Below are positions 1,601 to 6,421 of a stretch of DNA of 29,442 nt, in pieces (position 1 is the first letter of the stretch; the number at the start of each line of letters is the position of its first letter). The stretch covers positions 1-29,442 of the IMG/VR virus record IMGVR_UViG_2529292882_000006. One strand, written 5' to 3'. The stretch is from a virus. Its lineage: Duplodnaviria; Heunggongvirae; Uroviricota; Caudoviricetes. A program made the position numbers and the translations under genes. The notes beneath the pieces are model-generated. The model saw only the letters and a program-made list of their open reading frames with translations. It did not search any database and was not told the origin of the DNA.

Positions 1601-2659
1601 GTGAGGGTATTAGTGACTCCTGAAATTGCTCACCGTCTGGGGATTGTACTTTTCAGGCCTGGTCCTGATGCGATGCCTTTGTTTATGCAGGGGCGTGTGC
1701 TGGTGGAGCCGGAACCAAAAAGCATGCGCGGTCTGCCGTCCGGGGTCGTTCCTGCCGTTCGCCAGCCGCTGGCGGAGGATAAATCATTACTGCCATTTTT
1801 CAGTGATGAGAGGGTGATTCGCGCTGCTGGCGGTGCTGGTGCACTGTCTGACTGGCTATTGCGCCACGTTAAATCCTGCCAGTGGCCTCATGGTGACTAC
1901 CATCACAGCGAAACCGTCATACATCGTTACGGTACTGGCGCGATGGTACTGTGCTGGCACTGCGACAACCAGCTGCGCGACCAGACCTCCGAATCACTGG
2001 AACATCTGGCTCAACAAAACCTGGCAGCATGGATGATTGACGTCATCCGTCACGCAATGAATGGCACACAGGAGCGGGAATTATCGCTGGCTGAATTATC
2101 CTGGTGGGCGGTCTGTAATCAGGTGGCGGACGCGCTACCGGAGGCAGTATTACGTCGTTCTCTGGGATTGCGTGCGGAAAAAATCCACTCGGTGTATCGC
2201 GAAAGCGACATCGTACCGGGAGAGCAGACCGCCACCAGCATACTAAAGCAGTGCACAAAAAATATTGCGTTACCGCCTCACGTCCACCAGCAACAGAACT
2301 CACCACAGGAAAAGACGGCGGTCAGCATTGCCGTTGATCCGGATTCTCCGGCTCAGTATCTCCAGCGCCAGAAACCACAACGGGAAGAGATGCCTCTATA
2401 CACGCGTTGGGTAAAAACGCAGAAATGCATGACGTGTGGCAATCAGGCAGATGATCCGCATCACATCATTGGTCATGGACTGGGAGGGATGGGAACAAAG
2501 GCTGACGATTTGTTTGTTATTCCGCTGTGCCGTAAATGCCATAACGAACTACACGCCGGGGTAAAAGATTTTGAAGAAAAACACGGCAGCCAGCTGTTGT
2601 TGCTGATTCGTTTTTTAATGCACGCGAGAAATTCAGGTGTCCTGAAGTGGAAAGCATAA
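1601..2659 (+). CDS. DUF968/YdfU-like nin-region protein with C-terminal Cys/His HNH-like motif
   Basis: 352-aa ORF. C-terminus CMTCGNQADDPHHIIGHGLGG...VIPLCRKCHNELH resembles an HNH/zinc-binding motif. Position just upstream of rusA and Q is typical for this family in lambdoid prophages. Start is GTG at 1601 or 1613. Confidence 0.55.
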   Translation: MRVLVTPEIAHRLGIVLFRPGPDAMPLFMQGRVLVEPEPKSMRGLPSGVVPAVRQPLAEDKSLLPFFSDERVIRAAGGAGALSDWLLRHVKSCQWPHGDYHHSETVIHRYGTGAMVLCWHCDNQLRDQTSESLEHLAQQNLAAWMIDVIRHAMNGTQERELSLAELSWWAVCNQVADALPEAVLRRSLGLRAEKIHSVYRESDIVPGEQTATSILKQCTKNIALPPHVHQQQNSPQEKTAVSIAVDPDSPAQYLQRQKPQREEMPLYTRWVKTQKCMTCGNQADDPHHIIGHGLGGMGTKADDLFVIPLCRKCHNELHAGVKDFEEKHGSQLLLLIRFLMHARNSGVLKWKA

Positions 2660-3040
2660 ATGACTGAAAGCATAGAATTTGTTTTGCCTTACCCGCCAAC
2701 GGTGAACACCTACTGGCGACGTCGTGGCAGCACATATTTTGTATCAAAAGCAGGGGAGCGTTATCGCCGGGATGTGGCGCTTATTGTTCGCCAGCAGCGG
2801 CTGAAATTAAACCTGTCCGGAAGGCTGGCAATAAAAATTACTGCAGAGCCGCCGGATAAGCGCCGTCGTGACCTGGACAATATTCTGAAAGCACCACTGG
2901 ATGCGCTGACGCATGCGGGACTGCTTATCGATGACGAGCAGTTTGATGAAATCAATATTGTGCGCGGTCAGGTCGTTCCTGGTGGTCGGCTGGGCGTGAA
3001 GATTTACGAAATAATGCATGACGGGCAGGTCCAAAAATGA
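2660..3040 (+). CDS. rusA: RusA Holliday junction resolvase
   Basis: 126 aa with ...LPYPPTVNTYWRRRG... and the catalytic-region motif DKRRRDLDNILKAPLDALTHAGLLIDDEQ, matching RusA. ATG directly follows the upstream stop. Confidence 0.85.
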   Translation: MTESIEFVLPYPPTVNTYWRRRGSTYFVSKAGERYRRDVALIVRQQRLKLNLSGRLAIKITAEPPDKRRRDLDNILKAPLDALTHAGLLIDDEQFDEINIVRGQVVPGGRLGVKIYEIMHDGQVQK

Positions 3041-3858
3041 AACTGGAAGATTTACCGAAATACTATTCCCCGAAATCGCCAGGCCTGACTGATGCATCCG
3101 CCTCGACATCAAAAGATGCACTGAGTATCACTGATGTGATGGCTGCACAGGGCATGACACAGAACCGGGCTGAGATGGGATTTTCTGCGTTCCTGGGGAA
3201 AATGGGCATTAGTATGAACGACAGGGCGCGGGCAACAGAATTACTGGCAGATTATGCATTAAGTCAGTGCGATCGCGTGGCGGCGTTAAGAAAACTTCCG
3301 GCAGAAATAAAACCGGCAGTGATGCGCATTATGGCTTCGTATGCTTTTGAGGATTATGCCCGCAGTGCAGCGAGTAAAAAGCAGTGTTCTTGTTGCCGTG
3401 GGGAAAAATTTATTGAAAGCGAAGTTTTTACAAACAAGGTTCAGTATCCGGATGGTAAGCCGCCAGTATGGGCAAAGTGCACAAAAGGCGTGTATCCGTC
3501 TTATTGGGAAGAATGGAAAAAAATCCGGGAGGTGGTGAAAGTTTCCTGTCCTGAATGTAAAGGGAAGGGGGAGATTTCCACTGCCTGTAAAGACTGCCGT
3601 GGGCGTGGTGTAGCCATTCATCGTGAAGAGTCAGAAAAACGGGGTATGCCTGTTATCAGGGACTGCCAGCGTTGTGGCGGTCGTGGCTATGAAAGACAGC
3701 CGTCGACGGAGGCATTTAATGCCATACGCAAAGTGACGAGTGCTATCACGCTTGATACGTGGAAAAAATCAGTGAAACGCTTTTACGATACGTTGGTGGT
3801 TCGGTTTGACATTGAAGAGGCATGGGCGGAGCGGCAGTTAAAGAGGGTAACGCGATAG
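3037..3858 (+). CDS. Lambda-type late antiterminator Q
   Basis: N-terminus ...YSPKSPGLTD...SITDVMAAQGM... and C-terminus ...TLDTWKKSVKRFYDTLVV... parallel lambda Q; Cys-rich zinc-binding region present. ATGA overlap with the rusA stop. Confidence 0.85.
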   Translation: MKLEDLPKYYSPKSPGLTDASASTSKDALSITDVMAAQGMTQNRAEMGFSAFLGKMGISMNDRARATELLADYALSQCDRVAALRKLPAEIKPAVMRIMASYAFEDYARSAASKKQCSCCRGEKFIESEVFTNKVQYPDGKPPVWAKCTKGVYPSYWEEWKKIREVVKVSCPECKGKGEISTACKDCRGRGVAIHREESEKRGMPVIRDCQRCGGRGYERQPSTEAFNAIRKVTSAITLDTWKKSVKRFYDTLVVRFDIEEAWAERQLKRVTR

Positions 3859-3863
3859 TGTTG

Positions 3864-3903
3864 TTGATTTTTCCCGAATCTGTGGTAAATTCACCCTAAC
3901 GAT
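3864..3903 (+). promoter_or_regulatory. PR'-like late promoter with qut-type pause element
   Basis: TTGATT (3864-3869), 16-nt spacer, extended -10 TGgTAAATT (3883-3891), then AACGAT (3898-3903) at about +1 to +6, matching the sigma70-dependent pause element used by lambda Q. Confidence 0.55.
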
Positions 3904-3938
3904 GGGCGTTTTATGCCTGACGTTAGAAGAATTTTTAC

Positions 3939-3965
3939 AACCCGCCACCGAGCGGGTTTTTTATT
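3939..3965 (+). terminator. tR'-like intrinsic terminator (would release a short 6S-like transcript without Q)
   Basis: Stem CCCGC (3941-3945) / GCGGG (3952-3956), followed by TTTTTTATT. Confidence 0.6.
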
Positions 3966-4086
3966 GCCTGAAAAACGGCACAGGACGTTAAACGCGCTGG
4001 TGGTTGCGAATACCGGTCTTTCAACTTGCTGGCTTTTTCGACAAGAGTTATTGGTATGTCACGTTAACCGGAAAAGGGGAAAAGAC

Positions 4087-4284
4087 ATGCTAAAACAGCA
4101 GGATATGACCGAAACCGCCAGAGTGGTGTTTAATGAATTAAGCGTCACCGAACCGGCGACCGTCGGGGAAATTGCGCAGAATACTTACCTTTCACGCGAA
4201 CGTTGCCAGTTAATACTGACCCAGCTTGTTATGGCGGGTCTGGCAGATTATCAGTTCGGTTGTTACAGACGCCTTCCGCAGTGA
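4087..4284 (+). CDS. Small protein (65 aa) with HTH-like segment
   Basis: GGGGA 8 nt upstream of ATG 4087. Sequence MLKQQDMTETARVVFNELSVTEPATVGEIAQNTYLSRERCQLILTQLVMAGL... has helix-turn-helix character. The longer ORF-track version from 3913 would span the terminator and is not used. Confidence 0.4.
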   Translation: MLKQQDMTETARVVFNELSVTEPATVGEIAQNTYLSRERCQLILTQLVMAGLADYQFGCYRRLPQ

Positions 4285-4434
4285 AGGCTTTTTAATTTGT
4301 GGTAATGGGCGGCTGGTGGGTGTTAGCGGCACCTATCAGCCATCTGCTCATGCGTTGGGGTCACAAGCAAACCTCAGGCCCATCTGCTTTGCGCAAAAGC
4401 GGAATGAGCCTATCAGAGAAGTGCTTATTGATCT

Positions 4435-5481
4435 ATGGCTAATACTGTAAAAATATCCAGTTGTGAGTTAATCAACGCTGATTGCCTGGAATTTATCCAG
4501 ACCTTACCGGAAAACTCTGTCGATCTGATAGTCACAGACCCGCCATACTTTAAAGTGAAACCCGAAGGCTGGGATAACCAGTGGAAGGGCGACGATGATT
4601 ACCTGAAATGGCTGGATCAGTGTCTGGCGCAATTCTGGCGGGTACTGAAACCTGCCGGAAGTCTCTACCTGTTCTGTGGTCATCGCCTGGCATCTGATAT
4701 CGAAATCATGATGCGTCAGCGCTTTAATGTGCTGAATCACATTATCTGGGCGAAGCCGTCCGGGCGCTGGAACGGGTGTAACAAGGAAAGCCTGCGGGCG
4801 TATTTCCCGGCAACAGAACGCATTCTGTTTGCTGAACATTATCAGGGACCATATCAGCCCAAAAATGACGGCTATGCGGCAAAGGGGCGCGAGCTAAAAC
4901 AGCACGTCATGGCCCCGCTGATTTCTTACTTTCGTGATGCGCGTGAATCACTGGGGATAACGTCGAAACAGATAGCGGAAGCCACCGGAAAGAAAAACAT
5001 GGCTTCGCACTGGTTTGGTATCAGTCAGTGGCAGTTACCGAACGAGGGTGATTACAACAAATTGCAGGCGTTGTTTGCGCGTGTTGCGGCAGAAAAACAT
5101 CAGCGCGGGGAACTGGAAAAGCCACACCACCAGCTGGTCAGCACATACAGTGAACTGAACCGTCAATACGCCAGCCTGCTGGAAGAGTACAAATCTTTGC
5201 GACGTTATTTTTCCGTATCAGCTGCCGTTCCGTATACGGATGTCTGGACGCACAGGCCCGTGCAGTATTATCCGGGCAAACATCCCTGTGAAAAACCAGC
5301 CGATATGTTGCGCCAGATAATTACTGCCAGCAGCCGTCCGGGTGATTTGGTTGCTGATTTTTTCATGGGCTCAGGCTCAACAATAAAAGCGGCACTTTCA
5401 CTGGGACGCCGTGCGATTGGCGTGGAACTGGAAGAAGAGAGATTTAATCAGACTGTAACTGAAATAAAAAATAATCGTTAA
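4435..5481 (+). CDS. Orphan DNA methyltransferase, N6-adenine/N4-cytosine class (DPPY motif)
   Basis: 348 aa with DPPY (motif IV) near the N-terminus and FFMGSGST (motif I) near the C-terminus, i.e. beta-class permutation. No restriction endonuclease gene adjacent. Confidence 0.85.
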   Translation: MANTVKISSCELINADCLEFIQTLPENSVDLIVTDPPYFKVKPEGWDNQWKGDDDYLKWLDQCLAQFWRVLKPAGSLYLFCGHRLASDIEIMMRQRFNVLNHIIWAKPSGRWNGCNKESLRAYFPATERILFAEHYQGPYQPKNDGYAAKGRELKQHVMAPLISYFRDARESLGITSKQIAEATGKKNMASHWFGISQWQLPNEGDYNKLQALFARVAAEKHQRGELEKPHHQLVSTYSELNRQYASLLEEYKSLRRYFSVSAAVPYTDVWTHRPVQYYPGKHPCEKPADMLRQIITASSRPGDLVADFFMGSGSTIKAALSLGRRAIGVELEEERFNQTVTEIKNNR

Positions 5482-5650
5482 ATATGCATTTAATAATTTC
5501 TTTATTTTATAAAAAATAAAAACATATACCTATATTTACAAATCTTGATGTAATTTTCCATTGAAAAGAGAGCTGGTATTATTAATATCGGTCTCCGGTT
5601 CCGAAGGGGATGTAAAGCGCGGTCATTTTTATTTCTCTTGAGGAACCAAT

Positions 5651-5726
<76 letters not shown>

Positions 5727-5729
5727 TAT

Positions 5730-5804
<75 letters not shown>

Positions 5805-6073
5805 GCAGAGGACGATAGATACTAGGTTGTGTTAGGCACTGACACATTTTATGTGGGGCGTTTTTCCTGACTCCTTACCTCGCCCTGTACTGTAATGAGT
5901 GATATCGGTTGCAGCACCAGTGCCGTTTTTTACGCCACCGGAATGGTGCATTATTGGTAGAGATTTGCAATGTCTCTGGCAGGGGCCGATGATGCATCAT
6001 TCTGGTGTTGTAAATAACACCATGACATTGAGATTAATCATATATTAAGCAAAACCTGGAAACACATCCTTAA

Positions 6074-6098
6074 CCGCCTCCACCAGGCGGTTTTTTTT
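6074..6098 (+). terminator. Intrinsic terminator
   Basis: Stem CCGCCT (6074-6079) / AGGCGG (6085-6090), loop CCACC, followed by T8. Confidence 0.55.
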
Positions 6099-6421
6099 AT
6101 TCTTAATTCGAAAAAAAGAAAACACGGACACTGATAATGTCCGTGCGGCAATGCCATGTAAGTCAGCGATGAATATGGCGCAAAAAAAGCGCGGCTGTCG
6201 GATTAACGCCGCGGGACAAAGTCCGTGAAGAAGAATAAGTATCGATCTCCTTCCGGAGACGAGTTGATATTACTAAGCTTTAAAAATGGTTTAAATCCTC
6301 AGATTGACCTTAATTTCCGGTAAGTCTTATTTCATTTTCTCCGCGCTACCTCCGGCGCACATCACATCAGATAACACCACACAAAAGGCATCTGCAGGTG
6401 CCTTTGACGGGGTGTTTTTAT

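Follow-up and report, generated by a model that had tools for sequence, protein, structure and literature searches.

We analysed a 29,442-nucleotide (nt) stretch of viral DNA (IMG/VR record IMGVR_UViG_2529292882_000006, positions 1 to 29,442; hereafter the window), whose source element is a phiP27/SfV-like prophage. The region under study begins at position 3859, the base right after the stop codon of the antiterminator gene Q, and holds a small winged-helix gene and a DNA methyltransferase (MTase) gene. The elements follow one another in the order Q, late promoter PR' with a pause site, terminator tR', small winged-helix gene, a second terminator-like hairpin (T2), a leader of about 140 nt without a Shine-Dalgarno sequence, MTase gene, transfer RNA (tRNA) genes, and lysis genes. 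A previous interpretation made from the letters of the window (the sequence-only reading) had placed a small helix-turn-helix (HTH)-like open reading frame (ORF) and a 348-amino-acid (aa) amino-MTase right after PR' and tR', and the coordinates, Pfam matches, an AlphaFold2 model, and an alignment with lambda bear this arrangement out. The main features are as follows.

3037-3858, + strand: antiterminator Q of 273 aa that includes a DnaJ-type zinc finger (Pfam PF03589, E 7e-50; PF00684, E 1.4e-07)
3864-3906, + strand: late promoter PR', with −35 TTGATT at 3864-3869, extended −10 TGg TAAATT at 3883-3891, and AACGATGGG at 3898-3906 (alignment with lambda)
3939-3965, + strand: tR' (T1), intrinsic terminator AACCCGCCACCGAGCGGGTT (stem 3939-3958) followed by a T-run (terminator scan)
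4025-4062, + strand: conserved 38-nt non-coding block CTTGCTG-N11-AGAGTTAyyTGTrT-GTCAC, 3' of tR' and 5' of the small ORF (present in every lineage, by alignment of 33 loci from several genera)
4087-4284, + strand: 65-aa stand-alone winged-helix protein (PHROG phrog_331, E 1.4e-37; PGAP name 'TrmB family transcriptional regulator')
4271-4293, + strand: T2, terminator-like hairpin GCCTTCCGCAGTGAAGGC followed by TTTTT, overlapping the stop codon of the small ORF (terminator scan)
4294-4434, + strand: structured RNA leader, ~140 nt (covariance model R1, folding, and compensatory changes)
4435-5481, + strand: 348-aa beta-class N6-adenine DNA MTase, an M.EcoGII ortholog (PF01555 N6_N4_Mtase, E 1.1e-44, residues 29-340)
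5651-5804, + strand: tRNA-Thr(UGU) and tRNA-Gly(UCC) (ARAGORN; Rfam tRNA matches of 58.8 and 65.6 bits)

The motifs of the 348-aa MTase stand in beta-class order, with DPPY at residues 35-38 and FMGSG at residues 310-314. The alignment of the protein with M.EcoGII spans the whole sequence, the central domain (residues ~160-237) included, at 86% identity (297/347 residues); it contains two gaps of one residue each, which are probably reading errors of the PDF-derived reference, and no insertions or deletions in the target-recognition domain (TRD). Identity is likewise 86% to the enzyme of phage 1720a-02, which has been named a close relative of M.EcoGII (PMC5778455), and reaches 93% to L24 of phiP27, 88% to Anc291, and 72% to SUPREM, the last two being reconstructed relatives that are still non-site-specific (PMC11551740). 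M.EcoGII is a 349-aa beta-class enzyme from a prophage of Escherichia coli O104:H4 that methylates adenine in any context in double-stranded DNA, single-stranded DNA, and RNA; lysogens do not express it, and its constitutive expression is deleterious (PMC5778455). Its residues 160-237 have been modelled as a four-helix bundle with an HTH, by which nucleic acid is bound without base specificity (PMC11551740). Judged by this comparison, the window MTase is an M.EcoGII ortholog, and its expected product is global, context-independent N6-methyladenine (m6A) with no new motif. PADLOC assigns the window MTase to the generic Type II MTases. The catalytic motifs and an intact MTase ORF were found in ~145/157 loci, which speaks for a function that is maintained; most of the remainder are start-codon artefacts of the script.

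This identity changes how the gene should be approached. The sequence-only reading had inferred a target-recognition insert between DPPY and FxGSG; such a domain is indeed present, as in any beta-class enzyme, but in the M.EcoGII family it confers no sequence specificity (PMC5778455; PMC11551740). The accompanying proposal to look for a new methylation motif on induction, and to take the lack of one as refutation, was mistaken, because context-independent m6A is expected of an M.EcoGII ortholog (86% identity). As the hallmark of the family is the lack of specificity, motif-based tests would mislead, and the quantity to measure is global m6A rather than a motif. The general account of an orphan MTase holds: Pfam scans of about two dozen window ORFs, several of which gave no match, revealed no restriction endonuclease, in line with the claim that a partner is missing. 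That account had passed over the characterised and widespread family to which the enzyme belongs, the second hairpin, and the structured leader.

The late promoter PR' is real, as judged by direct comparison with lambda (44510-44649). The window promoter reads TTGATT-16 nt-TAAATT-6 nt-AACGATGGG and lambda PR' reads TTGACT-17 nt-TAAATT-6 nt-AACGATGGG, such that the −10 region, its 6-nt distance to AACGATGGG, and AACGATGGG itself are identical between the two; a simple consensus promoter scan did not list PR', only 8/12 positions being matched. AACGATGGG is the counterpart of the lambda promoter-proximal pause element, and in lambda AACGAT is the sigma-70 pause signal needed for Q loading. An intrinsic terminator lies 5' of the small ORF in all aligned loci, with stem sequences that differ, and the terminator at the tR' place shows compensating stem changes in loci from Escherichia to Xenorhabdus. 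Homology to phiP27 and to Shiga toxin 2 (Stx2) phages begins at about position 3935, indicating that tR' travels with the cassette. The predicted constitutive RNA from PR' to tR' (3898-3965) is ~65-70 nt long and sits at the position of lambda 6S RNA and of StxS; its only Rfam match, Trp_leader at 26 bits, is at chance level. T2, which lies between the small ORF and the MTase gene, is an addition of this analysis. A hairpin with compensating changes occupies its place in all aligned loci, even in those without the small ORF.

Between tR' and the MTase gene, scans of the window, of a Salmonella locus (L016), and of a Xenorhabdus locus (L048) revealed no consensus sigma-70 promoter. Like lambdoid late-operon cargo (a 'moron') under Q control, the two genes lie between Q/PR'/tR' and the lysis genes; of the promoter and terminator of their own that would allow expression from the prophage, terminators are present, and a consensus sigma-70 promoter was found for neither gene. 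The conserved block at 4025-4062, which also lacks a consensus sigma-70 promoter by scan, may be a 5' untranslated region element, an operator, or an atypical promoter. In Morganellaceae, the equivalent of this block can fold as a hairpin just 5' of the Shine-Dalgarno sequence. Taken together, the two terminators, the lack of a consensus promoter, and the published silence and toxicity of M.EcoGII support expression by terminator-resistant, Q-modified RNA polymerase only. Q-dependent expression, which the sequence-only reading had suggested, is likely.

The cassette is widespread and holds a fixed position. Of 5426 complete E. coli genomes, 2488 contain a match to it, which in 1874 covers 80% of the cassette or more; a single genome carries it at up to 8 places, and its spread is Enterobacterales-wide. 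The pair of small ORF and MTase was detected by megablast in phiP27, many Stx2a/c/d phages, 1720a-02, and others. We used a species-level set of 80 loci, one genome per species, whose MTases are 60-87% identical, and from it ten representatives (Salmonella, Klebsiella, Mixta, Kosakonia, Trabulsiella, Rosenbergiella, two Proteus loci, Photorhabdus, and Xenorhabdus). In all ten, a Q antiterminator lies directly 5' of the cassette, and lysis genes lie downstream, as in the window. The upstream Q genes belong to four unrelated Pfam families (PF06530, PF06323, PF03589, and DUF1133), indicating that the cassette stays at the front of the late operon irrespective of the Q system in use. Prophage Sp5 of E. 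coli O157:H7 Sakai (L163), a classic Stx2 phage, has no cassette: ileZ-argN-argO and stx2AB come immediately after Q. The cassette is thus optional among Stx phages, and the published Sp5 transcript maps could not serve as evidence for its expression. The Salmonella locus L016 carries, besides the M.EcoGII-type gene, a second MTase (2440-3084; N-terminus MNYDLIYCDPPWEY) just 5' of Q.

The 140 nt between T2 and the MTase start codon contain a conserved RNA structure. We aligned 46 sequences from different species (alignment A1) and later realigned them with covariance model R1. Two domains are supported by A1: a 5' domain in which H1 encloses the 13-bp hairpin H2, and a 3' domain of H3 to H7, whose closing helix H3 reaches position −1 of the MTase AUG. 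The helices are listed below.

4305-4310/4346-4351, + strand: H1
4311-4323/4329-4341, + strand: H2
4358-4363/4429-4434, + strand: H3
4365-4368/4423-4426, + strand: H4
4376-4379/4408-4411, + strand: H5
4381-4383/4404-4406, + strand: H6
4384-4390/4396-4402, + strand: H7

After realignment with R1, 95.3% of the cells were paired, versus 29-41% with slid partners. Changes on both sides were found in 12 of 41 pairs, versus 3-7 in the slid controls, and none of 500 shuffles reached 12. G.U pairs make up 9.2% of the cells, and reading the − strand lowers pairing to 87.5%. The + strand folds at −61.5 kcal/mol (z −3.66), and the − strand has a z of −1.92. In the window, R1 gave a single match (131 bits, E 4e-30), confined to the + strand. 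In 47/80 species-level loci it found exactly one copy, in each case directly adjoining the MTase gene, and 80/80 viral loci likewise had one copy; matches in Photorhabdus were weak, and by alignment Xenorhabdus and Photorhabdus carry a shorter variant. The leader is also conserved at the nucleotide level in loci without the small ORF. Of 56 matching phage records, the 40 listed leave it unannotated.

Several other identities for the leader were considered. The covariance models of Rfam 15, run in E-value mode on 3600-6400 and 4260-4460, gave nothing above chance, and the Rfam families AgvB, AsxR, Esr41, STnc100, and riboswitches did not match, in a comparison that did not include the Pas small RNAs (sRNAs), described at other prophage positions. 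A peptide-coding role was rejected, as scattered 1-nt insertions and deletions destroy any common reading frame. Nor does the leader appear to hide a ribosome-binding site: the cost of opening the MTase start is no higher than that of other window genes, so the start codon is not obviously occluded. A Shine-Dalgarno sequence is absent before the MTase AUG at 4435. In two Proteus loci (P. cibi and P. hauseri, L079 and L080, ~3920-4000), the small ORF and the MTase are present, and the leader is replaced by a terminator and an AAAGGA Shine-Dalgarno sequence. In six Xenorhabdus loci (L044, L048, L050, L053, L057, and L069), an ancestral ATG-GAA lies ~12 nt before the MTase match and is followed in several species by a TAG stop; these MTase ORFs continue from a GTG two codons on, leaving a two-codon mini-ORF in front. 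The leader may act on the level or timing of translation, on mRNA stability, or as a binding site; most likely, it sets the level or timing of MTase translation or the stability of the mRNA. We tentatively propose, at somewhat below even odds, that it represents an undescribed cis-regulatory RNA family dedicated to M.EcoGII-type MTase genes, which together with the upstream terminator and often the phrog_331 protein forms a fail-safe gating a toxic, non-specific enzyme. In an extreme version, the enzyme, which would also methylate RNA, could act on conserved adenines that are unpaired in its own leader, providing feedback on its translation.

The small gene upstream encodes a real, purifying-selected, stand-alone winged-helix protein that accompanies the MTase in about three quarters of species-level loci. 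Its ATG at 4087 is preceded by aaggggaaaagac. AlphaFold2 confidently predicted a helix-helix-helix-beta-hairpin winged helix (mean pLDDT 91.2). PHROG labels phrog_331 as 'unknown function'. The match to the TrmB winged helix (PF01978) lies below the curated threshold (18.0 bits versus a cut-off of 25.6, E 0.0026), such that membership in the TrmB family is not supported and the generic winged-helix fold alone is shared. Fold neighbours (E ~1e-3) are generic winged HTHs of O-methyltransferase dimerisation domains, MarR/OhrR, IclR, and the RNA-binding domain of SelB; the m6A-sensing winged helix of DpnI was not in the top 50 matches, and we do not assign the protein to that type. A PDB sequence search with the small-protein profile gave nothing significant, and literature searches for the small gene found nothing. 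Median dN/dS is 0.11 and 0.19 in two length classes, and from Escherichia to Proteus and Xenorhabdus the protein is kept at 63-67 residues with the N-terminus MLKxxDMT and the helix RCQL(I/L)LTQ..AGL. An exhaustive profile search yielded only 86 representative clusters, all of small stand-alone proteins except two long ones with short partial matches, and none with a domain fusion that hints at a partner. The small ORF lies ~300-350 nt 5' of the MTase start in ~58 of ~76 informative species-level loci and upstream of the MTase in 73/73 IMG/VR viral loci; conversely, the MTase lies within 400 nt in 70/70 viral loci found by the small protein, a sample of near-identical copies. The MTase is kept without the small ORF in ~17/80 loci.

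We interpret the window region as the head of a lambda-type late operon with a widespread cassette, in which a late, Q-dependent MTase would hypermethylate progeny DNA for broad anti-restriction and layered controls would silence the toxic enzyme in the lysogen; we give this reading a probability of about 0.75. In the lysogen, PR' transcripts would end at tR', and any read-through would then meet T2 and a weakly translatable leader, such that no enzyme is made. On induction, Q-modified RNA polymerase would pass both terminators, and the MTase would be produced alongside the late proteins. It would methylate a large share of the adenines in replicating phage DNA before packaging, and the progeny DNA would then withstand the many Type I, II, and III systems that adenine methylation blocks. 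The winged-helix protein would be an accessory nucleic-acid-binding factor of the cassette. Methylation in any context, silence in the lysogen, and harm upon constitutive expression are carried over from the literature on the ortholog; for the window MTase itself, the prophage location is established, no endonuclease was found among the scanned ORFs, and the two terminators and the lack of a consensus promoter suggest silence in the lysogen. An anti-restriction role through modification of progeny DNA, as the sequence-only reading also held, is likely.

Several points weigh against this interpretation. Non-specificity is transferred from an enzyme that is 86% identical, and the M.EcoGII reference was machine-read from the PDF of Supplementary Table S1 of PMC11551740, with a few reading errors. 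The T-run of T2 is short in many loci. Opening the MTase start (−18 to +12) costs 11.5 kcal/mol in the window and 6-12 kcal/mol in other loci, compared with 7-17 kcal/mol for other window genes. The parts are separable, as ~17/80 loci have the leader and the MTase without the small ORF and two loci have the small ORF without the leader. A plasmid heavily methylated by M.EcoGII transforms E. coli poorly (PMC5778455), and full methylation may thus carry a cost. Literature searches for direct evidence of hypermethylated virion DNA in Stx or lambdoid phages found nothing.

Two other views of the enzyme were weighed. It could be a sequence-specific orphan whose central insert reads one motif, serving protection against one cognate restriction system or epigenetic control. 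Such a role would suit the beta-class layout, in which ~270 aa of central TRD separate DPPY from FMGSG, the Type II class given by PADLOC, and the 14% of residues, some of them in the TRD region 160-237, at which the enzyme differs from M.EcoGII. We regard it as very unlikely, given the full-length alignment with no TRD insertions or deletions, the 88% identity to Anc291 in a family where even SUPREM, at 72%, is non-specific (PMC11551740), and the lack of a partner endonuclease among the scanned ORFs. Alternatively, anti-restriction may not be the main role: hypermethylation of the host chromosome, of rival phages, or of RNA could serve to shut off the host or competitors, or the enzyme could label phage DNA for the control of replication or packaging. 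Late expression would coincide with host takeover, and M.EcoGII expression slows growth, besides the poor transformation by methylated plasmid (PMC5778455). We consider this unlikely: the interpretation of the M.EcoGII authors and the timing of modification just before packaging favour anti-restriction, and a cassette that is dispensable in many related phages, such as Sakai Sp5, better fits an accessory host-range function than core replication.

Two further alternatives concern the control of the enzyme. The winged-helix protein may be a dedicated controller, analogous to the controller (C) protein of restriction-modification (R-M) systems, that binds cassette DNA (e.g., 4025-4062) or leader RNA and represses or times MTase synthesis. 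The tight linkage of the two genes in viral (73/73 and 70/70) and species-level loci (~58/76) speaks for it, as do the presumed recognition helix RCQL(I/L)LTQ..AGL kept from Escherichia to Xenorhabdus, the conserved non-coding block 5' of the small gene, and fold neighbours that include the DNA-binding MarR and IclR and the RNA-binding SelB winged helix. This role is possible but doubtful, because the small ORF is missing from ~17 loci that keep leader and MTase, and L079 and L080 have the small ORF without the leader; H2 varies among Proteus loci whose small proteins share one helix, so H2 is not its sequence-specific site; and the fold differs from the XRE type typical of C proteins, with no endonuclease among the scanned ORFs and no fusion proteins as a hint. 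The conserved 140 nt before the MTase could instead be a DNA operator of inverted repeats, H2 being a near-perfect 13-bp inverted repeat with weak opposite-strand covariance-model matches at its hairpin, or a short upstream ORF, since some loci allow ORFs of 39-47 codons across this stretch. We find this very unlikely. The share of G.U pairs and the loss of pairing on the other strand (95.3% to 87.5%) point to RNA, the long-range helices H1 and H3 extend beyond local palindromes and are backed by changes on one side as well as on both, far better folding than in shuffles is seen for the + strand but not for the − strand, and the scattered 1-nt insertions and deletions break a common reading frame.

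The cassette resembles several known systems. The window MTase shares motif order, length (348 versus 349 aa), 86% identity, and prophage location with M.EcoGII, which, like M.EcoGI, comes from E. coli O104:H4 C227-11 (Murray et al. 2018, PMC5778455), and phage 1720a-02, which carries the close M.EcoGII relative, has the same order of Q, small ORF, and MTase as the window. The enzymes differ at 14% of residues, and the small upstream gene, the second terminator, and the leader RNA are not described in PMC5778455. The 'hypothetical protein + DNA methylase' pair present in many Stx2 phages as well as in SfV and mEp460 (L23/L24 in phiP27) is the same cassette: nucleotide identity is 80-93% over a stretch that starts at the tR' hairpin and ends close to the MTase stop codon. 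It sits between the late-control region and the tRNAs/stx or lysis genes. The window differs from these phages in what comes after the MTase, namely tRNA-Thr, tRNA-Gly, and next the lysis genes, stx being absent, and its Q family differs from that of most of them.

The promoter region is comparable to PR'-6S RNA-tR' of lambda and to StxS of Stx phages (PMC7547250), with a constitutive late promoter containing TAAATT and AACGATGGG, a nearby terminator, and Q for read-through. The terminated RNA of the window is ~65-70 nt compared with 258 nt for StxS (PMC7547250), to which likeness in sequence was checked by Rfam scan alone. As with R-M C proteins, a small HTH protein lies just 5' of an MTase whose early expression needs control; the window protein is a winged helix rather than XRE, matches neither HTH_3 nor HTH_31 of Pfam, and has no endonuclease among the scanned ORFs and no recognisable C-box nearby, and a terminator and a ~140-150-nt leader separate the two genes, so we do not regard it as a C protein. 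T-even Dam, P1 Dmt, and Mu Mom are known cases in which a phage modifies its own DNA in lytic growth against several restriction systems, with toxic functions under tight late control. These enzymes are site-specific or chemically different, and their control circuits (e.g., Mu Com/Mom) are unrelated in sequence to the window cassette. Lambda 6S RNA, for its part, is 194 nt long.

The enzyme family is already known; the two terminators in series, the structured leader without a Shine-Dalgarno sequence, and the tightly linked winged-helix protein are undescribed, and the second terminator, leader, and linked protein are candidates for the parts by which a toxic enzyme would be silenced. M.EcoGII is widely used as an m6A footprinting reagent for chromatin and RNA, and its natural biology is barely studied; in our analysis, the family has a constant location within lambdoid late operons, in about half of the complete E. 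coli genomes and across Enterobacterales. The prediction follows that many induced prophages, Stx2 phages included, would release heavily adenine-methylated DNA, which would have consequences for host range, for how toxin genes cross restriction barriers as they spread, and for sensitivity to Type IV systems that depend on m6A.

Pfam families found among the scanned window ORFs comprise RusA, DUF968, Q, holins, an endolysin, a K88-type fimbrial subunit, terminase, portal, capsid, tail, and ParDE. Two promoter-like sites (5555-5588) lie ahead of the tRNA-Thr(UGU)/tRNA-Gly(UCC) pair, whose place is occupied by stx and/or tRNAs in phiP27 and 1720a-02. Stx phages carry ileZ-argN-argO at this position, and a tRNA promoter has been mapped there in Sakai (PMC7547250). 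Downstream of the tRNAs are two holins and a GH108 endolysin and, farther on, a lambda-type terminase, portal, ClpP-capsid fusion, and sheathed tail. The segment 5828-6146 contains convergent terminator-like hairpins at 6072-6092 (+ strand) and 6146-6122 (− strand), at a place matching that of described convergent prophage sRNAs (PMC4104026); a CyaR_RyeE match at 6028-6097 is sub-threshold (31.3 bits versus a cut-off of 47). The gene for the K88-type fimbrial subunit (PF02432, E 6e-55), an unusual prophage cargo, lies at 9248-10057 between the lysis genes and the terminase. Upstream of the genes for DUF968, RusA, and Q, the − strand segment 257-1254 encodes the toxin ParE (629-928) and the antitoxin ParD (934-1254), next to an HTH_31/MqsA-like protein (257-610).

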